Of a stretch of DNA of 64,000 nucleotides, positions 1,470 to 32,682 are shown in pieces. Every line of letters starts with the position of its first letter. Positions within the stretch are counted from its first letter, which is position 1. Source of the stretch: Gemmatimonadota bacterium (lineage in GTDB: Bacteria; Gemmatimonadota; Gemmatimonadetes; Longimicrobiales; Gaopeijiaceae); the NCBI GenBank assembly GCA_039589315.1, contig JBDHHQ010000021.1, positions 32,001 through 96,000 of the forward strand, written 5' to 3'. Below the pieces are notes generated by a model, which worked only from the letters and a program-made list of their open reading frames with translations, had not been told where the DNA came from and ran no database searches. Position numbers and translations under genes: made by a program.

Positions 1470-1684
1470 CTAACCCGCGGTTGCTTCGCGGTCCGCCCCA
1501 CCGGGAGGTTGCGCTCCCCCTCCATCGGCACGATCTTCTGGCGATTTTTTCCGAATCCGGGCACTGACGGACAGTGTTCCAGACGACCCCACCAACGGGT
1601 CCCCGGATCTCCGGAAGAGCCATACCGGCAGCGGCTTGTCCGCAGTGCTGGTTCAGACGCAGCCAATCCAGGACGGCGGAAGGG

Positions 1685-2323
1685 ATGACCGAACGACTTC
1701 GGAACACAGGAGTCGCAGCGGCGCTCATCGTGGCGCTGAGCGGGTCGGCGTGCTCCGAGCCGACTCCGGGCCTTGCCCGGGGCGACGCTCTGTTCGACAC
1801 CTGCGTTCCTTGCCACGGCGCAGAAGGTCAAGGAAACCGGGAGCTTGGAGCGCCCGCCATCGCCGGACTACCTCAATGGTACGTCCAGGCCCAGCTCGAG
1901 AAGTTCGAGTCGGGATGGCGGGGCGCCCATCCGATGGACACGGTAGGGATCCGCATGAAGTCCATGGCGCGCTCCCTCGACCTCGAGGGCGACCTGGAGT
2001 CGGTGGCCGAATACGTGGCCACCATGCCGCCCACGGATCCCCAACCCGTTCTGCACGGTGACGCGCAGGCCGGTCAAACGGTCTATCAGGGAACCTGCAT
2101 CGCTTGCCACGGCCCGGACGGGCGGGGCAACGAGGCGTTGAACGCACCGCCGCTGGTGGGTCAGAGCGATTGGTACCTTCTGGCCCAGTTCCAGAAGTTC
2201 CGGAAGGGTTGGAGAGGCACGAATCCCAACGATACCTGGGGCTCGACCATGTACCCCAACTCCCTGCTCTACGAAGACGCCGCAGTGGAAGACGCCCTGG
2301 CCTACATCCAGACCTTGCAGTAG
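1685..2323 (+). CDS. diheme cytochrome c (c4/c553-like) lipoprotein
   Basis: Two CxxCH motifs (CVPCH, CIACH), each followed by AP.(I/L).G...WY...Q..KF..GWRG and a distal Met; lipobox-like LSGSAC; ATG at 1685 after GGAAGGG. Confidence 0.9.
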   Translation: MTERLRNTGVAAALIVALSGSACSEPTPGLARGDALFDTCVPCHGAEGQGNRELGAPAIAGLPQWYVQAQLEKFESGWRGAHPMDTVGIRMKSMARSLDLEGDLESVAEYVATMPPTDPQPVLHGDAQAGQTVYQGTCIACHGPDGRGNEALNAPPLVGQSDWYLLAQFQKFRKGWRGTNPNDTWGSTMYPNSLLYEDAAVEDALAYIQTLQ

Positions 2324-2338
2324 GGACACGATACGCGC

Positions 2339-2521
2339 ATGAGCAACGAAGTGAGTGCCCCGAAGGAGAATCTGCCGGTGGACGAAGCTTCCATCGAGGA
2401 CGCCTATCTGGCGATCCCCGACGAGGAGAATCCACCCATCATCGACGCTCGCAAGACGTTCCGCGTGACCGTGATCATGGCGATCCTGTTCATCGGAAGT
2501 GTCTTCGTCTTCATTCTTTGA
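2339..2521 (+). CDS. small single-TM membrane protein in oxidase operon
   Basis: 60 aa with an acidic N-terminus and a C-terminal hydrophobic helix; fills the gap between the cytochrome c gene and subunit II. Confidence 0.7.
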   Translation: MSNEVSAPKENLPVDEASIEDAYLAIPDEENPPIIDARKTFRVTVIMAILFIGSVFVFIL

Positions 2522-2543
2522 TCCGAGCGGAACCGCTGCGCCC

Positions 2544-3311
2544 ATGATCGAGAGTCTGATTCAGCAAGCATCGTCGTACGCGGCGTCCATCGACGGGATC
2601 ATCCTGTTGATCGCCGTGCTGGTGGGGTTCTGGTTCATCCTGGCAGAGGGCGTCTTCTTCTGGCTGATCCTGAAGTTCCGGGCCAAGCCCGGGCAGAAGA
2701 GCGACTACATCACCGGCAAGGAGAAGCATCTCAAGCGGTGGATCACGATTCCCCACGCGCTGGTGCTGCTGTGCGACGTCTTCATCGTCATAGGCGCAGT
2801 CCGGGTCTGGCATGAGGTCAAGCTCCAGCTGCCCGAACCCGACGCGACTGTCAGGGTCATCGGCCAGCAGTGGGCGTGGGTGTTCCAGCACCCAGGCCCC
2901 GACAACGAGTTGGACACCGGCGACGACATCTTCACGACCGACGAGCTGCACGTTCAGAACGATCGGACGTACCACTTCCAGCTCCAGTCGCGAGACGTGG
3001 TCCACAGCTTCTCGGTGCCGGTCTTCCGCCTCAAGCAGGACGCGGTCCCGGGCCGGACCATCACCGGTTGGTTCCGTCCTACGCAGACGGGTGAGTTCGA
3101 CATCCAGTGCGCCGAGATCTGTGGAATCGGCCACGGCGTTATGGGGGCCCGGATCCACATCGAGAGTGAGAGCGAACACGCCACCTGGATGGCGCTGAAC
3201 AGCCCTGGGGACGGCACCGGCTTGGCACTAGCCGGCCCGGTGGATGCCCCGGCACTCGCTCCGGCAGCGGACCACGACAGCCACGACCACAGTCCGTCGA
3301 ACACCCAGTAG
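2544..3311 (+). CDS. coxB: cytochrome c oxidase subunit II (CuA)
   Basis: Two TM helices, GQQWAW, DVVHSF and the CuA motif CAEICGIGHGVM; His-rich tail. Confidence 0.95.
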   Translation: MIESLIQQASSYAASIDGIILLIAVLVGFWFILAEGVFFWLILKFRAKPGQKSDYITGKEKHLKRWITIPHALVLLCDVFIVIGAVRVWHEVKLQLPEPDATVRVIGQQWAWVFQHPGPDNELDTGDDIFTTDELHVQNDRTYHFQLQSRDVVHSFSVPVFRLKQDAVPGRTITGWFRPTQTGEFDIQCAEICGIGHGVMGARIHIESESEHATWMALNSPGDGTGLALAGPVDAPALAPAADHDSHDHSPSNTQ

Positions 3312-3329: not shown

Positions 3330-5039
3330 ATGGCTCAGGCCGCCACGATTGCCGAGGGTGCCGAGCACCACGCTCACGAGCACCACGGTCCCCAGGGGAT
3401 CCTGAAGTACATCTGGTCCACCGACCACAAGATCATCGCCATGCAGTATCTCTTTACGGGGATGTTCATGGGTGTGATCGGTGGTCTGATGGCGTACGTG
3501 TTCCGTATGCAGCTGGCTTTCCCGGGTGTCTCGGTCCCCGGCTTCGGCGTGGTCTCGCCCGGTGAGTACAACGCACTCGTGACGAACCACGGGTCCATCA
3601 TGATCTTCTGGGTGGCGATGCCCGTATTGATCGCCGCCTTCGGGAACTTCCTGATCCCCCTGATGATCGGGGCGGACGACATGGTGTTCCCCAGGATCAA
3701 CCGGCTGTCGTTTCAGATCTTCTTCCTGAGCGCCGTCCTGATCCTTCTCTCGCTGGTGGTGGAGGGTGGCGGCTTTGGGGGCGCCTGGACGGCGTATCCG
3801 CCGCTTTCAGCCAATTCGGCCTACAACCTGACCAAGCTGGGCGCGACGCTCTGGCTCCTGGCCGTGGCGCTCGAGTTCGTGGCTTTCCTGCTGGGCGGCA
3901 TCAACTTCATCACGACGTTGATGAACTCCCGAGCCCCCGGGATGAAGGCCTACGACATCCCGCTGGTCTGCTGGATGATCGTGATCGCCAGCATCATCTT
4001 CATGCTGTCGGTGGGCCCGCTCATCGCAGGCGCGGTGATGCTGCTCTTCGATCAGGTGATCGGTACCGGCTTCTACGACCCGACCCGAGGCGGGGACCCG
4101 ATCCTCTGGCAGCACCTCTTCTGGTTCTTCGGCCACCCCGAGGTGTACGTTGTGTTGCTGCCGGCCATCGGCATCGTGATCGACGTCGTGGCCACCTTCG
4201 CCCGCAAGAAGGTGTTCGGCTACAAGATCATGCTCTACACGGCGGTAGCCACCGGCGTGTTGAGCTTCTTCGTCTGGGCGCACCACCAGTTCGTCGCCGG
4301 GATCGACCCCCGGATGGCGAACATCTTTACGGTCACGACGCTGCTGATCTCGGTGCCCATCGCCGAGTTGTGCTTCGTAATCATCGCGACGCTGTATCGA
4401 GGGTCGATTACGCTCAATACGCCCATGCTCTGGGCACTCTCGTTCATCGCAGAGTTTCTGATCGGCGGTGTCACGGGGATCTTCCTGGGAGCCAGCGGCT
4501 CGGATATCTACCTGCACGACACGTACTTCGTGTTGGCGCACTTCCACTACACGTTCTTCCCCATCGCCATCATCGGGGCATTCGCCGCGCTGACGTACTG
4601 GTTCCCGAAGATGTTCGGGCGGATGATGAACGACACTCTCGGGAAGATCCACTTCTGGGGAACGATCATCCCGTTCAACTTCATCTTCATTCCGCTGTTC
4701 GTGCTCGGGTTGGGTGGTCAGCACCGCCGGATCTACAACTTCCAGAATTTCTCCGAGCTGGCGGCCATGCAGCCCTACCGGGTCCTGGCCACGGTGTCGT
4801 TGATCGTCATGCTCCTCTTCCAGCTGGTCTTCTTCTACAACTTCTTCCGGAGCATGCGGAAGGGAGAGGCGGCAGGCAGGAACCCGTGGAAGGCAAACAC
4901 CCTGGAGTGGACGGCGGAATCGCCGCCGCCCCACGGCAACTGGCCCCGTGACGAGATGCCCCGCGTCTACCGCGGTCCCTACGAGTACGGGCACCCGGAC
5001 CGTGAAGAAGACTACTGGCCCCAGAACCTTCCTGCCTGA
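3330..5039 (+). CDS. coxA: heme-copper oxidase subunit I (A-family-like, atypical proton channels)
   Basis: STDHK, TNHG, DMVFPRIN, WTAYPPL, FWFFGHPEVY, WAHH, LHDTYFVLAHFHY and HRRIY motifs. Confidence 0.97.
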   Translation: MAQAATIAEGAEHHAHEHHGPQGILKYIWSTDHKIIAMQYLFTGMFMGVIGGLMAYVFRMQLAFPGVSVPGFGVVSPGEYNALVTNHGSIMIFWVAMPVLIAAFGNFLIPLMIGADDMVFPRINRLSFQIFFLSAVLILLSLVVEGGGFGGAWTAYPPLSANSAYNLTKLGATLWLLAVALEFVAFLLGGINFITTLMNSRAPGMKAYDIPLVCWMIVIASIIFMLSVGPLIAGAVMLLFDQVIGTGFYDPTRGGDPILWQHLFWFFGHPEVYVVLLPAIGIVIDVVATFARKKVFGYKIMLYTAVATGVLSFFVWAHHQFVAGIDPRMANIFTVTTLLISVPIAELCFVIIATLYRGSITLNTPMLWALSFIAEFLIGGVTGIFLGASGSDIYLHDTYFVLAHFHYTFFPIAIIGAFAALTYWFPKMFGRMMNDTLGKIHFWGTIIPFNFIFIPLFVLGLGGQHRRIYNFQNFSELAAMQPYRVLATVSLIVMLLFQLVFFYNFFRSMRKGEAAGRNPWKANTLEWTAESPPPHGNWPRDEMPRVYRGPYEYGHPDREEDYWPQNLPA

Positions 5040-5050
5040 GGTCCGATCAA

Positions 5051-5623
5051 TTGGATAAGCCCATCGCGACCACGCGCTACGCTACCGGGATCCCCACCGG
5101 CCGTCTGGCTGTCTGGTGGGTTCTCGCCTCCGAGGTCGTCATCTTCGGGGGCCTGCTGGCGTCCTATCTCATGTTCCGGCTCGGTCATCCGGAGTGGGCC
5201 GACGCCGCGGCGCACACCAACACGTGGATCGGCGCATTCAACACCTTCGTCCTGCTTACGTCGAGCTTCACCGCGGTCCTGGCCCACCAAGCCGCGGAGA
5301 AGGGCGACGGGCAGCTGGCGGCCAAGTACCTGGGGTTCACCATCATCGGTGCGGCCACCTTCATCGGCGTGAAGAGCTTCGAGTGGTACTCGGAGATCAC
5401 CCACGGCTATACCATCACGGCGAACGGATTCTGGAGCTTCTACTACACGGCGGCGGGGCTGCACGCGGCCCACGTGATCGCAGGCGCCGTCATCATGGCG
5501 TTCGTCGCGAGGGACGCGGCGCAGAACAAGGAGCTCCACCGGGTGGAGCTGATCGGAATCTATTGGCACTTCGTGGACGTCGTCTGGATCTTCCTGTTCC
5601 CCCTGCTCTACATCGCGAAGTAG
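5051..5623 (+). CDS. coxC: heme-copper oxidase subunit III (short form)
   Basis: SEVVIFGG, NTFVLLTSSFT, GLHAAHV and YWHFVDVVW motifs; TTG start after GAGG. Confidence 0.9.
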   Translation: MDKPIATTRYATGIPTGRLAVWWVLASEVVIFGGLLASYLMFRLGHPEWADAAAHTNTWIGAFNTFVLLTSSFTAVLAHQAAEKGDGQLAAKYLGFTIIGAATFIGVKSFEWYSEITHGYTITANGFWSFYYTAAGLHAAHVIAGAVIMAFVARDAAQNKELHRVELIGIYWHFVDVVWIFLFPLLYIAK

Positions 5624-5630
5624 GTACGAC

Positions 5631-6374
5631 ATGTCGGATCAATCCGGGCACGACATCAACTACAAGAAGATCTATTACACGCTGCTGATCCTGCTGGTGA
5701 TCAGCGTAGCGGGCCCGTTCTTGGGGATCTTCTGGGTCACGCTCATCACGGCCTTCGGGATCGCCTTGGTAAAGGCCAACCTGGTCGTCCAGAACTTCAT
5801 GCACCTGAAGACCGAGCGGCAAATCATGAAGTGGTTGCTGGCCGGGTCTCTCGTGCTCATGTTCCTGCTGTTCGCCGGTGTCGCCGCGGACGTGATGAAG
5901 CACGAAGGCGCCAATTGGGAGAACACGGCTGCCAAGGCCGCCGTGGCCCGGGGAATCCCGGACGCCGACCACGCCGAGGAGTCGGGTGAGGAGCACGGCG
6001 AGGGGTCCGGTGAGGAATCGGGTGCCGAGGCGGGGGCGCCGGAGGGTGGGGCCGCTGTGGCGGTCGCTGGGGCGGCCGAAGCCGCCGCGTTCGACGCCGA
6101 GGGCGCCTTCCAGGCGGTGTGCGCCACCTGCCATGGCTTGACGGGCGGCGGCGACGGGCCGGGTTCGGCGGCCCTGGAGCCCAAGCCCGCGGCCTTCGAC
6201 GACCGGGCCTTCTGGGAGACGCGCACCGAGGCCGACATGGTGACGGTCATCCTGCAGGGCGGTGCGGCGATCGGTAAGTCGCCCCTGATGCCCCCCTGGA
6301 ACGCGCTCTACGACCAGGCAAAGGCCGAGGCCCTGGTTGCCTACATCCGGGAGACCTTCGCGCCCGCCAGCTGA
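5631..6374 (+). CDS. cytochrome c oxidase subunit IV (CtaF-like) fused to a C-terminal cytochrome c
   Basis: N-terminal 3-TM domain with KANLVVQNFMHLK.E; acidic Gly/Ala linker; CATCH heme motif and SPLMPPW distal Met. Confidence 0.88.
   Translation: MSDQSGHDINYKKIYYTLLILLVISVAGPFLGIFWVTLITAFGIALVKANLVVQNFMHLKTERQIMKWLLAGSLVLMFLLFAGVAADVMKHEGANWENTAAKAAVARGIPDADHAEESGEEHGEGSGEESGAEAGAPEGGAAVAVAGAAEAAAFDAEGAFQAVCATCHGLTGGGDGPGSAALEPKPAAFDDRAFWETRTEADMVTVILQGGAAIGKSPLMPPWNALYDQAKAEALVAYIRETFAPAS
5976..6023 (+). repeat. 4 x 12-nt imperfect tandem repeat encoding the EESG/EEHG/EGSG/EESG linker
   Basis: gaggagtcgggt gaggagcacggc gaggggtccggt gaggaatcgggt. Confidence 0.7.
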
Positions 6375-6407: not shown

Positions 6408-7001
6408 ATGGAAGCCTCGACCTTGACGTTGGCGCGCCGCGAGCCGCAGCCGTCACCCCAGCTGCTTGCGAGCAGCGTGCTGGGCATGCTGCTGTTCGTA
6501 TTCACGGAGATCATGCTCTTCTCCGGCTTGATCTCGGCCCACGTCATCTTCCTGTCGGGCCGGGTGGGCGAAATCTGGCCGCCTCCCGGACAGCCTCGTC
6601 TGCCGTTCCAGGAGACGGCCCTGAACACGACGGCGCTTCTGGTGAGCGGCGTGGTCTTGCTCATTGCCCGGCTGGCGTACGCCAAGAGCCCGCGCCGGGC
6701 TCTCGTTCCCATGGCGATCTCGGTTCTGCTCGGCGCATTCTTCGTCGCCGCCCAGGGTGCGGAGTGGCTGGACCTGATCCGCGAGGGGCTCACGATGACG
6801 TCGAGCACGTACGGGGCCTTCTTCTACCTGATCGTGGGCACTCACGCGGTACACGCGGTGGCCGCCATCTTCGGTCTGGCGTGGGCTTGGCTGCGACTGC
6901 GAACAGGCGAGCTCAACAGCGCCCACTTCGACACGGTCCAGATCTTCTGGTATTTTGTGGTGCTCGTGTGGCCGGTGATCTACTTCCAGGTGTACGTGTG
7001 A
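6408..7001 (+). CDS. second subunit III-family protein (CoxP/NorE-like)
   Basis: TEIMLFSGL, NTTALLVSG, QGAEW, GTHAVH and FWYFVVLVW motifs. Confidence 0.88.
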   Translation: MEASTLTLARREPQPSPQLLASSVLGMLLFVFTEIMLFSGLISAHVIFLSGRVGEIWPPPGQPRLPFQETALNTTALLVSGVVLLIARLAYAKSPRRALVPMAISVLLGAFFVAAQGAEWLDLIREGLTMTSSTYGAFFYLIVGTHAVHAVAAIFGLAWAWLRLRTGELNSAHFDTVQIFWYFVVLVWPVIYFQVYV

Positions 7002-7231
7002 TGGCTCATCGCTGGATCCCCATGCTGGTGCTGGTGCTCCTGGTCGCTCTGCCCGAGGCGATCTTCGCCTGTCCCGTCTGCTTCGACGCGAGCGCCGAGA
7101 ACCGCGTAGCGTTTCTGAAGACCGCCATCGCTCTGTCGGTCCTGCCATTGGGACTGGTGGGAGGGACAGGCCTGTGGCTACGCAAGCGGTGGCGGGAGCT
7201 GTCCGGCGAGTCGGACGAAGATCTGGGCTGA
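7001..7231 (+). CDS. small membrane protein with signal peptide and CPVC motif
   Basis: TGATG overlap with the upstream stop; MAHRW...AIFA-CPVCF, then one TM helix and a basic stop-transfer segment. Confidence 0.75.
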   Translation: MAHRWIPMLVLVLLVALPEAIFACPVCFDASAENRVAFLKTAIALSVLPLGLVGGTGLWLRKRWRELSGESDEDLG

Positions 7232-7407: not shown

Positions 7408-7956
7408 CTAGGCCGGGGTGCCGCTCAAGTCCGCTACGTCGTTCCCCGCGTTGGCGCTCTCCCCCTGCTCCGCCTCGGCAGAGAGATGGGCTCTCCGGAG
7501 GAACGCCGTCATGGCTGTGGCCGTGAGCGCGTTGGCGACCAGGATGCTGCCCGCCCCGATCCGCCCGGCCACTCCTGGCATGATTACGCTGGCGCTCATC
7601 AGGAATCCGGCGGAGGAGAGCACGAAGAGCGCGCCGGCGGAGGCCGAGAAGGAAGTGGCGCGCGCCTCGACGAAACGGACGACCCAGGAGGCCAAGAGGC
7701 CCAGTATCATGAACGCGAGGATGTGGACGATCGTGGTCAGCGCCACCGCGTCGAGCCGGACCGCGCTCACGGCATCTGCGGCCTCGCCGAAGAACAGCAC
7801 GCTGCCCACCAGTGAGGGCGTGAAGAGCGGTTGCCCACCGATCGTGTCGAGCACCAGGAAGAAGAGCGCGACGACGGCCCCGCCAATGGCACCGGAGTAG
7901 AACGACTCGTACAGGACATCGGCCATCGTGGGCGGGCGGTGGTTCTCGTGCGTCAT
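7408..7956 (-). CDS. hypothetical integral membrane protein
   Basis: About 5 hydrophobic helices; D..GGQPLFTP, H and N within helices; RBS GGAGAGG before MTHEN. Confidence 0.75.
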   Translation of the reverse strand: MTHENHRPPTMADVLYESFYSGAIGGAVVALFFLVLDTIGGQPLFTPSLVGSVLFFGEAADAVSAVRLDAVALTTIVHILAFMILGLLASWVVRFVEARATSFSASAGALFVLSSAGFLMSASVIMPGVAGRIGAGSILVANALTATAMTAFLRRAHLSAEAEQGESANAGNDVADLSGTPA

Positions 7957-8236
7957 CGGACCTCTCCCTCCGGGCAACCAGGAGCCCGGACCTGCCGTAG
8001 TAGGCTCTACTCCCCCGAAAGCGTGAGCCTCTGGCGGAGTTCCGTGCGGAATGGCATCGATCGACCCGGGGGAGGGGAGACCCGGGACGGTCGCGCCGAG
8101 GTCCGCTGTGGGAATAAAGGCAACAGTAGGGCCTTCGCGCCCCCTTGGCGAGGGGCCCGGGGGCGGTGGTGCGTCGGTGGGCCCGATTGCCCGGCGGGTA
8201 CCCGGTGCCGACCGCTGCCGAGGGCGCCCTCGAGGC

Positions 8237-30462: not shown

Positions 30463-32682
30463 GTGCCAAGGCTCCTGGCCGTGCTGGTCCTGGCGGCCGC
30501 CGCGCCACTCGGTGCTCAGGACCTGAAGGAGAGGGCCGCGGCCTCCTCCGTTCGAGCCACGCGGCCGCAGGTCATCGCGACGGCGACGACGTCGGAGGTC
30601 CGAATCGATGGGCGTCTCGACGAGCCCGTGTGGCAGGCGGCCCCTTCGGCCACCGATTTCGTCCAGGCTGAGCCCAGGGAAGGTCAGCCGGCCACCGAGG
30701 CGACGGAGGTCTGGATCGCCTACGACGAGGACAACCTGTACGTAGCGGTCAGGCTGCGCGACTCCGATCCGTCCGGCATCGTCGTCAACGACATCAAGAA
30801 GGACTTCGCGGAGGGCAGCCAGGACGTCTTCACGGTCATTCTCGACACCTTTCAGGACCGCAGGAACGGGTACGTCTTCATGACCAACCCGGGCGGCGCA
30901 CGGGGCGATCGGCAGATCGCCGGCGAGGGTCGGGAGGTGAACGGAAGCTGGGACGCCATCTGGCTCGTGGAGACGCAGATCGACGACGCGGGCTGGACTG
31001 TGGAGATGGCCATCCCGTTCCGGACCCTGCGCTTCGACCCGGAGCGGGCGGGCACCTGGGGGATAAACTTCAGCCGCTACATCCGGCGCAAGAACGAGCA
31101 GGTCTACTGGGCACCCGTGCCGCGCTCGTACAACATCATGCGCCTGTCGCTCGCGGGCGACCTCACCGGGCTACCGCAGGCGTCGGCCGGCCGTGATTTG
31201 CGCCTCACGCCCTACGCGCTGGGCCGGACCGTTCGGGAGACCGGTGGCGAGTCCTTCGACAACGACGCGGAGCTCGGGGGCGACCTGAAATACGGGATCA
31301 CCGATGGGCTCACGCTCGATCTCACGGTCAATCCGGACTTCGCCCAGGTGGAGGCCGACGTTCAGCGCGTGAACCTGACCCAGTTCTCTCTCTTCTTCCA
31401 GGAGAAGCGGGATTTCTTCCTGGAGAATTCCGGTATCTTCTACGTGGGAGACCTGGCGCGGAACGTGAGGGTCAGCAACATCCCCCGGGCCGACGAGGAC
31501 CTCGTGGTCTTCTTCAGCCGCCGCATCGGCATCGGCTCGGAGGGGGAGCAGATTCCCATCTACGGCGGTGCTCGGATCACGGGCCGCGTGCCGGGAGGCG
31601 TGAGCCTCGGAGCCCTGTGGATGCGGACGCACGAGCTCGACGAGAACCCCGAGTCGGACTACGGCGTGGTCCGCCTGCGGAAGAACCTGTTCGCCGGGTC
31701 GGACATCGGCGGGATCTTCCTGGTGCGGAACTCGGTGAACCGTGCCGAGGACCACAACATGGTGTACGGTCTCGACTCCTACATCCGCTTCCCGGGTGAC
31801 GTGGACTGGAGCGCCTATGGCCTGTTCACCGAGACCCCGAGCATCAGCGCGGGAGAGTACGTCTGGCGGACCTCCCTGAACCGGGAGGGCAACTTCCATC
31901 ACATCAAGTTCGGCGTCATGCAGATCGGCGAGGGCTTCAATTCCGATCTCAGCTTCTACCGGCGGGTTGGCGTCAGGAAGTACTTCATCGATTGGGGGAT
32001 TCGCCCACGCCCGGAGTCGCTCCGCCGCCGGGGCATCCGCGAGATGCACCCGCATATCGTCTGGAATTACTTCGAGGATCTGGCCGGGCGGAAGGAGGCC
32101 TACCGGCTCCACACGGGCTACACCTTCTTCTTCGAGTCGGGCGCTTTCGCGGAGCTATCGGTCAATCCCGTGTTCGAGCGGCTCGAGGACGAGTTCGAGA
32201 TCGATCCGGGGGCCGCGCCGATTCAGCCCGGCGAGTACGGGTGGGCGGAGTGGCAGCTCCGCGGCAACACGGACTCGAGCAAGCCCCTGTCCTTGAGCGC
32301 CGTCGGGATCCTGGGCGGGCTCTGGTCGGGGGACCAGCGCACCCTGAACGCCACGGTGGCCGCGAAGCCCAACTATCACTTCCGCGGGGAAGTGGGCATC
32401 TCCCGGACCGACGCGTCCCTGCCCGAAGGCGACTTCGTGAAGACGTTCTGGACCGGCCGGGTCAACTACTCGTTCCACAAGGACATGTTCATCGACGCCC
32501 TGGTCCAGTACGATCCAGGCAGCGGCCTCTTCAACTCCAACCTTCGCTTCAACTTCATCCACCACCCCCTGTCCAACCTGTACATCGTCTGGAACGAGCA
32601 GCGTTTCACCACCGGGATCGACCGCAACCTGAATCCAGGCCGCAGCCTGATCATCAAGGTCACGCAGATGTTCGCCTTCTAG
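30463..32682 (+). CDS. CBM9-like/DUF5916 outer-membrane protein
   Basis: IDGRLDE..W, WTVEMAIPF..LRF, TVNPDFAQVEAD, EKRDFFLE, FFSRRIG; terminal Phe. Confidence 0.9.
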   Translation: MPRLLAVLVLAAAAPLGAQDLKERAAASSVRATRPQVIATATTSEVRIDGRLDEPVWQAAPSATDFVQAEPREGQPATEATEVWIAYDEDNLYVAVRLRDSDPSGIVVNDIKKDFAEGSQDVFTVILDTFQDRRNGYVFMTNPGGARGDRQIAGEGREVNGSWDAIWLVETQIDDAGWTVEMAIPFRTLRFDPERAGTWGINFSRYIRRKNEQVYWAPVPRSYNIMRLSLAGDLTGLPQASAGRDLRLTPYALGRTVRETGGESFDNDAELGGDLKYGITDGLTLDLTVNPDFAQVEADVQRVNLTQFSLFFQEKRDFFLENSGIFYVGDLARNVRVSNIPRADEDLVVFFSRRIGIGSEGEQIPIYGGARITGRVPGGVSLGALWMRTHELDENPESDYGVVRLRKNLFAGSDIGGIFLVRNSVNRAEDHNMVYGLDSYIRFPGDVDWSAYGLFTETPSISAGEYVWRTSLNREGNFHHIKFGVMQIGEGFNSDLSFYRRVGVRKYFIDWGIRPRPESLRRRGIREMHPHIVWNYFEDLAGRKEAYRLHTGYTFFFESGAFAELSVNPVFERLEDEFEIDPGAAPIQPGEYGWAEWQLRGNTDSSKPLSLSAVGILGGLWSGDQRTLNATVAAKPNYHFRGEVGISRTDASLPEGDFVKTFWTGRVNYSFHKDMFIDALVQYDPGSGLFNSNLRFNFIHHPLSNLYIVWNEQRFTTGIDRNLNPGRSLIIKVTQMFAF

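Follow-up and report, generated by a model that had tools for sequence, protein, structure and literature searches.

An A1-type heme-copper oxidase of Gemmatimonadota without the canonical K channel, and a candidate replacement at the interface of its subunits I and II

Why the oxidases of the A family need two proton channels, and why the model enzymes cannot do without residue K362, has been asked for a long time. The locus described here is a cytochrome oxidase operon in a window of 64,000 nucleotides (the whole stretch of DNA that was analysed, positions 32,001 to 96,000 of contig JBDHHQ010000021.1, assembly GCA_039589315.1) from a Gemmatimonadota bacterium of the family Gaopeijiaceae. Its subunit I gene (3330..5039, + strand as all features below unless indicated, an open reading frame of 569 aa) encodes an A1-type heme-copper oxygen reductase without the canonical K channel. 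In the model enzymes, this channel serves the two reductive steps before O2 binding, either as a proton route or through charge compensation (PMC7196763), whereas it is described as unused in the peroxidase half-cycle (PMC10095113). K362 is required in the model enzyme, and the Rhodobacter sphaeroides mutant K362M, which keeps S299, T359, S365 and the subunit II residue E101, is blocked in the reduction of the active site (PMC10341450). The loss of the lysine from A-family oxidases is, as such, already known. A sequence survey (Degli Esposti et al. 2021, PMC8239418) catalogued A1 and A2 oxidases without it and suggests that the canonical K channel has perhaps been lost six or more times, the A1 cases being those of Elusimicrobia, Ca. 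Calescamantes HR19, Methylacidiphilum and Bacteriovorax/Halobacteriovorax, classed as having a 'KC-channel' or a 'hybrid' one. The subclades named there are Oligoflexia and Elusimicrobia/Calescamantes/Methylacidiphilaceae. Other lysine-less oxidases have been described in acidophilic iron oxidisers and Thioclava (10.1101/2020.03.01.968255). Families B and C and the eNOR, bNOR, sNOR, nNOR and gNOR families of nitric oxide (NO) reductases have no such lysine and use a K-like route of other polar residues (PMC11214002).

Three homology searches scored about 7,996 matches each, of which the top 120 were taken; together with the query, they gave 336 distinct proteins that share the same pattern at 67-100% identity, here simply the clade, to which all fractions of 336 refer. 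With the canonical aa3 enzymes of type A1 (R. sphaeroides 1M56/2GSM, Paracoccus denitrificans 1AR1 and the mitochondrial oxidase), the window's enzyme shares the fold, the six histidine ligands, E286 and Y288, as well as the D-channel residues D132/N139/N121/N207/Y33, the His-Asp pair of the Mg site, R481/R482 and a subunit II with CuA. In contrast, it has lost S299, T359, K362, S365, the subunit II residue E101 and S200/S201, and has gained S341, E346, E375 and E182 in subunit I and, in subunit II, His86, Asp93 and a four-residue insertion; its operon also differs in encoding two c-type cytochromes and two copies of subunit III, both of them short. With the lysine-less A1 enzymes of the survey, it has in common the A1 type, the retained tyrosine, an apolar residue for the lysine, an acid at the H300/E292 place and the loss of the entry glutamate, which is frequent among them. 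Under the scheme given there, it lacks the lysine (L347) and carries polar residues at 'KC' places (D/E285, and T304 and S312 of helix VII), as expected of a KC enzyme. However, the table of that survey holds no row with the pattern of the clade (Ile/Val/Leu at T351, Leu/Met at K354, Val at S357), its three Gemmatimonadetes rows all keep the lysine, and the same table (for Fig. S7) has no column for A356 or for the subunit II insertion. A cluster look-up of 10 representatives returned no accession from it, and the Elusimicrobia-like proteins, matched by residue pattern and not by accession, branch apart from the clade. The novelty implied in a preliminary description of the window was thus overstated in what regards the loss of the lysine, which is in print, although the pattern itself is not among the rows of that table. 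No paper on the clade, on Ser/Thr at A356 or on the subunit II insertion was found, although subscription journals and supplements may hold one.

The oxidases of iron oxidisers and Thioclava resemble the clade enzyme in the replacement of both the lysine and the subunit II glutamate and in keeping the D channel, but they retain the Thr at T351 and are classed as deep-branching, with extra N-terminal helices, whereas the clade enzyme has 12 helices. The structure of the K362M mutant (3OM3) is the top fold match, and the clade has the same Met/Leu at the lysine place; unlike this mutant, the clade enzyme lacks all the K residues that the mutant keeps, and yet it is the host's only oxidase in relatives of the window's genome. 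With respect to the B and C families and the NO reductases, the clade enzyme keeps the D channel, E286 and the helix VI tyrosine, and the crosslink Tyr, present in 336/336, sets it apart from eNOR, bNOR, sNOR, gNOR, nNOR, cNOR and qNOR.

Subunit I and its homologs

Subunit I belongs to the A family and is of type A1 by its active site, E286, CuA and its place in the trees, but it is not of the canonical two-channel type. The gene matches Pfam COX1 with 450.7 bits and CtaD_CoxA with 587 bits, below the cut-off of 670.75, and its PDB matches at E<=1e-20 are all from the A family (41/41). An AlphaFold model built on a 44-row alignment (predicted local distance difference test, pLDDT, 87.0; predicted template modelling score, pTM, 0.89) has 12 helices and superimposes on the A-type subunit I of R. 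sphaeroides with Z 50.2 and a root-mean-square deviation of 1.5 A over 505 residues. Residue numbers were transferred with phmmer, which aligned query residues 281-383 to residues 296-398 of 1M56 chain A without gaps (offset +15). The GHPEVY motif (4131..4148) carries the CuB ligand His269, Glu271 (E286) and the crosslink Tyr273 (Y288), each present in 336/336, and the six ligands H87, H269, H318, H319, H404 and H406 are likewise kept in the whole clade, which bears out the preliminary description on the integrity of the metal sites and of this motif. That description also placed helix VIII, reading ISVPIAELCFVI, at 4347-4382, where the start and end coordinates agree, and read I, I, L and V in the places of S299, T359, K362 and S365, as does the ungapped alignment: Ile284 replaces S299, next to Asp285 at the H300 place (4179..4184; Asp or Glu in 336/336), and I344 (T359), E346 (I361), L347 (K362) and V350 (S365) follow in helix VIII (4359..4379). 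In the same helix, Ser341 (4350..4352) stands at the A356 place in 336/336, a change that arose repeatedly alongside the loss of the lysine, and Glu375 (4452..4454), at the L390 place of helix IX, is found in 299/336. As judged from these alignments, together with that of subunit II, the K channel has been dismantled in both subunits, with S299, T359, K362, S365 and the subunit II residue E101 gone. The statement that the entire channel was lost nevertheless went a little too far, as Y288, T352 and the acid at the H300 place remain in subunit I, where new polar residues are also present.

The D channel retains its core, with Y40, N106, D117, N124 and E271 in 336/336 and N192 in 334/336, so that from the set D132/N139/N121/N207/Y33 the entry Asp, the Asn gate and the Tyr are kept. 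Its upper part has changed: Glu182 (3873..3875) occupies the S197 place in 336/336, S200 and S201 read A185 and F186 in the alignment to 1M56, and E182, F186, R125, Q129 and W94 of this altered region are present throughout the clade. The preliminary description had remarked neither on this upper D channel nor on Ser341, nor on subunit II, from which E101 has gone and in which a His and an Asp have appeared. Near the active site, M335 is Gln and V423 is Thr in 336/336. Other positions conserved across the clade are Gln320, directly after the CuB His pair (336/336), and, in helix X past the haem ligands (4551-4562), Thr408 (336/336) and Pro411 (335/336).

No member of the clade has a lysine within residues 336-355 of helix VIII (0/336), nor a Ser or Thr at the S299 or T359 places (284 and 344; 0/336). 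Position 344 is Ile, Val or Leu and position 347 is Met, Leu, Ile or Val in 336/336, the K362 place being Met in 192 and Leu in 133, whereas Ser299, Ser/Thr359 and Asn/Ser365 were found in 58/58 lysine-bearing controls among the fetched loci. The T304 place is Thr or Ser in 334/336, and Ser312 (the G327 place) is kept in 333/336. The signature PxxE(L/M), suggested earlier as a possible mark of the whole clade, holds for most of it: Glu346 is present in 312/336, and Ile or Val stands there in a 24-member branch around locus L009, which also has Leu for Thr308; L009 itself (Puniceicoccaceae bacterium K14, a record that carries no mark of a metagenome-assembled genome) has Ile at 346, and its genome holds other oxidases. 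In the named genomes, where 80 loci were retained from 598, the signature was found at L001-L017, L019 and the frameshifted L055, which according to their record titles belong to Gemmatimonadota, Myxococcota, Bdellovibrionaceae, Eisenbacteria and one Puniceicoccaceae. One of them, L011, is titled as a Klebsiella pneumoniae metagenome-assembled genome and holds a full clade operon that groups with Myxococcota sequences, the label being probably wrong.

Two unrooted trees were built, without a B or C outgroup: a careful one of 31 chosen rows, and a quick one of 110 rows with all well-covered lysine-less representatives and a chosen sample of lysine-bearing ones. In the careful tree, the clade has a support of 100/100 and joins a lysine-less sister type from Binatia at 100/98. 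The earlier assignment to a divergent A-type subfamily is supported. The quick tree places it among lysine-bearing relatives (support 95), a node left open in the careful one, and the clade has likely lost the lysine secondarily. K362 had been called near-invariant in A-family oxidases, which is overstated, as the lysine is missing in 55/147 scorable representatives of 50% clusters, a set enriched for divergent forms. Among these, a lineage formed by P0155, P0160, P0174 and 11 further representatives has Gln or His for the lysine, mostly a Glu in helix IV and often Glu for N207, and mostly lacks Ser/Thr356, so that by its residues it appears to be a different solution to the loss of the lysine. 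The database name 'cbb3-type cytochrome c oxidase subunit I' carried by several members of the clade (P0010, P0038, P0309 and others) is wrong, as they are of type A1; the C family is not indicated either, the Tyr being on helix VI and both the D channel and CuA being present.

A candidate site in place of the lysine

The A356 place is, with G327, described as a corner of the K-channel volume (PMC10341450). It holds Ser or Thr in 46/47 lysine-less loci and in 0/66 lysine-bearing ones, and among the representatives in 31/38 with an apolar residue for the lysine, 4/17 with Gln or His, and 1/92 with the lysine. In the 110-row tree, the lysine state changes 12 times, and Ser/Thr356 follows it in 6.8 out of 10 independent pairs and goes the opposite way in none (median p 0.016, range 0.008-0.063). 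The partner of this residue would be found in subunit II, where the middle of helix 2 carries an acid in 45/46 lysine-less operons and in 0/60 lysine-bearing ones, counts that exclude the window's own copy and two duplicates; the only lysine-less operon without it, L021, also lacks two His ligands. The position of the acid (W+12 or +13) is shared by the clade, the Binatia sister type, two Acidobacteriota lineages and L157, the second lysine-less oxidase of the window's genome, lineages that stand apart on the trees.

In the window, subunit II (2499..3311, with a likely start at ATG 2544) matches Pfam COX2, NCBIfam CoxB (134.5 bits versus a cut-off of 147.7) and 1M56 chain B, and the CuA motif is intact in 37/37 clade operons. 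In a profile alignment to 1M56 chain B, Leu78 (2730..2732) takes the position of E101, the Glu at the entry of the K channel; a Glu is found there in 2/37 clade operons versus 59/59 lysine-bearing ones. His86 (2754..2756), specific to the clade and in the middle of helix 2, and Asp93 (2775..2777), an acid predicted to be buried, are each present in 37/37, the latter within a four-residue, one-turn insertion in the outer half of the helix. A predicted complex of subunits I and II scored 0.89, versus 0.00 for the best of three controls, with 97% of contacts agreeing and pLDDT at or above 87; the mark for this score is reached by 116/157 solved and 2/215 mismatched pairs, and as this is a textbook pair a pass means likeness only. 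The predicted interface includes subunit I residues 341-342 and 345-346 together with His86 and Asp93 (residues 72 and 79 of the subunit II chain as cut for this prediction), and excludes Glu375.

Since every classic K residue is gone and yet the enzyme is the sole candidate O2 reductase in closed genomes, its function must be met in another way, in line with the other proton route that the preliminary description had proposed. The most likely scenario starts with electrons passing from the operon's own c-type cytochromes to CuA, the low-spin haem and the haem-CuB site with its His-Tyr crosslink, while the D channel would continue supplying Glu271. A rebuilt site, where helix VIII meets helix 2 of subunit II, would stand in for the lysine during the reductive half-cycle: Asp93, on its one-turn insertion, would be the protonatable group and Ser341 would connect it to Tyr273, as Thr359 connects Lys362 in the textbook enzymes. 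In the clade, Glu346 and His86, and perhaps Glu375, would prolong this path towards the cytoplasm. The whole mechanism, a working oxidase with a rebuilt K-type site, is given a probability of roughly 0.45. The wider proposal is more tentative still. According to it, A-family oxidases would have repeatedly exchanged the Lys/Thr channel for Ser/Thr356 plus a carboxylate borne by a subunit II insertion, with the reductive-phase path running between the subunits; the Glu-His-Asp-Ser chain of the clade would form a full channel from the cytoplasm to the tyrosine, able to sustain life with no other oxidase, and a graft of Ser/Thr356 and the carboxylate would rescue a K362M enzyme.

Several points weigh against this rebuilt site. 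The Ser/Thr356 trait was chosen after the data had been seen, and its pair test was run on the quick tree; the residue is missing in 13/17 Gln/His and 7/38 apolar representatives. The counts of the subunit II acid are not tree-corrected, and 37/46 lysine-less operons belong to a single clade. The Asp93-Ser341 pair is outside the 25 best contacts listed for the predicted complex, and by helix register Asp93 may lie one to two turns closer to the outside than Ser341. The cytoplasmic half has no universal residue, as Glu346 is Ile or Val in 24/336 and Glu375 is missing in 37/336, and three operons of the sister type lack Glu346, Glu375 and His86 altogether. Moreover, no assay of any clade enzyme was found in the literature searched.

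Simpler compensations were considered and discarded. A compensating lysine in register, which the preliminary description had named as a finding against its reading, is absent from residues 336-355 of the 336 homologs; Lys or Arg299 occurs at the cytoplasmic end of helix VII, where many lysine-bearing relatives have Arg. Glu346 as a direct stand-in for K362 lies about 100 degrees round the helix, falls in the subunit II interface and is missing from the 24-member sub-branch. Finally, for Glu346 and Glu375 as a single redundant site, the absence of members lacking both (0/336, versus 2.6 expected by chance) is too weak.

Oxygen reduction in the hosts and competing explanations

A search of 250 other genomes of the phylum, all of them at least 90% complete, gave 22 with a member of the clade, all in the window's family; these are kin and not independent cases. 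The clade enzyme is the sole PF00115 match in 12/22, five of these genomes being single contigs, and the remaining 10 have a second enzyme with the sequence GHSSQQ, a motif presumably of the eNOR type, with Gln in the place of the Tyr, so that the clade enzyme is the only Tyr-bearing heme-copper enzyme in 22/22. Cytochrome bd was found in 0/22 of these genomes, in a search whose control matched in 9/14. The five single-contig genomes all have a haem A synthase and NrfD-type subunits, and three of them a cytochrome b. The search for an alternative oxidase (0/5 genomes) is uninformative, its control having been silent, and this weakens the case for a sole oxidase. Further PF00115 matches occur in most of the 16 named clade genomes that were searched, and three entries (one being the genome G157) have only the clade enzyme. 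The simplest reading is that the clade enzyme is the only terminal oxidase of the window's relatives, and that the host genomes would respire oxygen through it. The crosslink Tyr is taken as the mark of O2 reductases and the described NO reductase families lack it (PMC11214002). Because this Tyr and the ligands are conserved in 336/336, the enzyme is the sole Tyr-bearing one in 22/22 and no cytochrome bd was found, the product of the operon is very probably a functional cytochrome c oxidase of type A1 (aa3/caa3-like), by which O2 is reduced to water.

Against this background, the rebuilt site has to be weighed with other explanations. It is possible, if rather doubtful, that the D channel works alone, carrying all eight protons (or fewer) through its altered upper part with Glu182, near Glu271, as a second proton store, and that the polar residues of helix VIII and subunit II are structural. 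The D-channel core is indeed kept while its upper part is changed in 336/336, and a helix IV acid is present in 19/49 lysine-less representatives versus 0/88 lysine-bearing ones. However, this acid is absent from the remaining 30/49 and was rejected as a general compensation, as it follows the loss of the lysine in about one of ten independent pairs, and a D channel working alone does not explain why Ser/Thr356 and an acid in subunit II were gained repeatedly. The S197D mutant of R. sphaeroides reportedly loses proton pumping, and because of this uncoupling the pump ratio of the clade enzyme may be low. That S197, S200, S201 and F109 line the D channel (PMC10341450) and that the peroxidase half-cycle needs no K channel (PMC10095113) would also suit such an arrangement. 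An unlikely variant has Asp93 and Ser341 replacing the lysine with no cytoplasmic channel at all, through local charge compensation or protons from the periplasmic side, and with less energy conserved. It would account equally for the convergence of Ser/Thr356 and the subunit II acid, and it fits the position of Asp93 in the outer half of helix 2, the loss of the entry Glu from a stretch that is now basic, the lack, towards the cytoplasm, of a polar chain common to all members, and the 'dielectric' role proposed for the K channel (PMC7196763). Yet the clade adds Glu346, His86 and Glu375, predicted to be buried, on precisely that side, the lack of members without both glutamates (2.6 expected if independent) speaks weakly in the same direction, and a sole oxidase in 22 genomes would argue against a large loss of yield.

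The buried carboxylates could also form a sodium site, with O2 reduction coupled to the movement of Na+, although this seems very improbable. There are three buried Glu in subunit I plus the Asp and His of subunit II, a putative sodium symporter gene adjoins the operon, and a Na+-pumping cbb3 oxidase reportedly carries a helix IX Glu; but the proton machinery of the D channel is fully kept, and there are sub-lineages that do without Glu346 and others without Glu375. A different chemistry such as NO reduction, left open in the preliminary description next to another proton route, is more improbable still and is the part of that proposal that is not supported. The Gln and Thr at M335 and V423 near the active site and the CtaD score under its cut-off would be compatible with it, whereas the crosslink Tyr of all 336 members is missing from the described NO reductase families (PMC11214002), NirK above its cut-off was found in 0/23 genomes and cytochrome d1 gave only short partial matches, 11/23 genomes carry a separate Tyr-less enzyme, and the hosts would be left without an O2 reductase. 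In the case of a decayed gene, a private mutation or a sequence error, which the presence of two other A-type operons in the window's genome might have favoured, the likelihood is negligible: the pattern is common to 336 homologs with 67-100% identity, the operon order is conserved across phyla and the enzyme is the sole oxidase in closed genomes, as expected from the earlier view that the locus is not decaying.

As for the other heme-copper enzymes of these genomes, the window's genome contains a second lysine-less A-type subunit I (L157, C27:75656-77482), 44% identical, in which Thr occupies position A356 and helix 2 of the partner subunit II holds a Glu; its separate origin on the trees rests on branch support. 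Its sole lysine-bearing subunit I (L158, C43:99737-101528) shifts frame near C43:101035, either through an assembly error or as a pseudogene, and follows several cytochromes c and a membrane protein resembling cytochrome bd; if the frame shift is real, the window's genome, too, has only lysine-less O2 reductases. The enzyme with Gln for Tyr (L156:3634-5400 on C6; L141-L150) is present in 11/23 genomes, none of which has a nitrite reductase that the searches accepted.

Operon, neighbouring genes and implications

The operon starts with the gene of a dihaem cytochrome c, followed by those of subunits II, I and III, of a subunit IV to which a cytochrome c is fused, of another subunit III and of a protein of 77 aa, the first six being in the same order at 21/23 clade loci shown (one locus being a duplicate), whereas the other two end at contig edges. 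The c4-like dihaem cytochrome c (1574..2323), with two CxxCH motifs and two stretches matching Pfam Cytochrom_C, is the likely electron donor; its true start is probably later than the listed GTG, and it precedes subunit II in 22/23 clade loci shown, the exception being a cut-off locus. Downstream of subunit I, the two short copies of subunit III (5051..5623 and 6408..7001), both matching Pfam COX3 and in a clade-conserved order, flank the fusion of subunit IV with a monohaem cytochrome c (5631..6374), which exceeds the caa3_sub_IV cut-off and has a Cytochrom_C match with one CxxCH. The 77-aa membrane protein with a CPVC motif (6998..7231), which overlaps the preceding stop and has no Pfam or NCBIfam match, is the probable final gene, and perhaps a copper or assembly factor; look-alikes follow subunit III in 14/23 clade loci shown. 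No FNR or sigma-54 pattern was found upstream of the operon. On the minus strand, a bile acid:sodium symporter family gene (540-1469) is divergent from the operon, and positions 7408-7977 encode a membrane protein of 189 aa that matches neither Pfam nor NCBIfam and whose look-alikes (31-39%) adjoin other oxidase operons in L157, L022, L048 and L051.

A last point to be considered is what the clade may mean for the A family and its hosts. A multi-phylum clade without the classic K residues, acting as the sole candidate O2 reductase in closed genomes, makes the question of the two channels directly testable, and the pairing of the lysine loss with Ser/Thr356 and a buried acid in subunit II suggests a natural replacement that can itself be tested. 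In any case, these enzymes bear on annotation, as members of the clade are often named cbb3, and on the energy yield that common uncultured bacteria obtain from oxygen.

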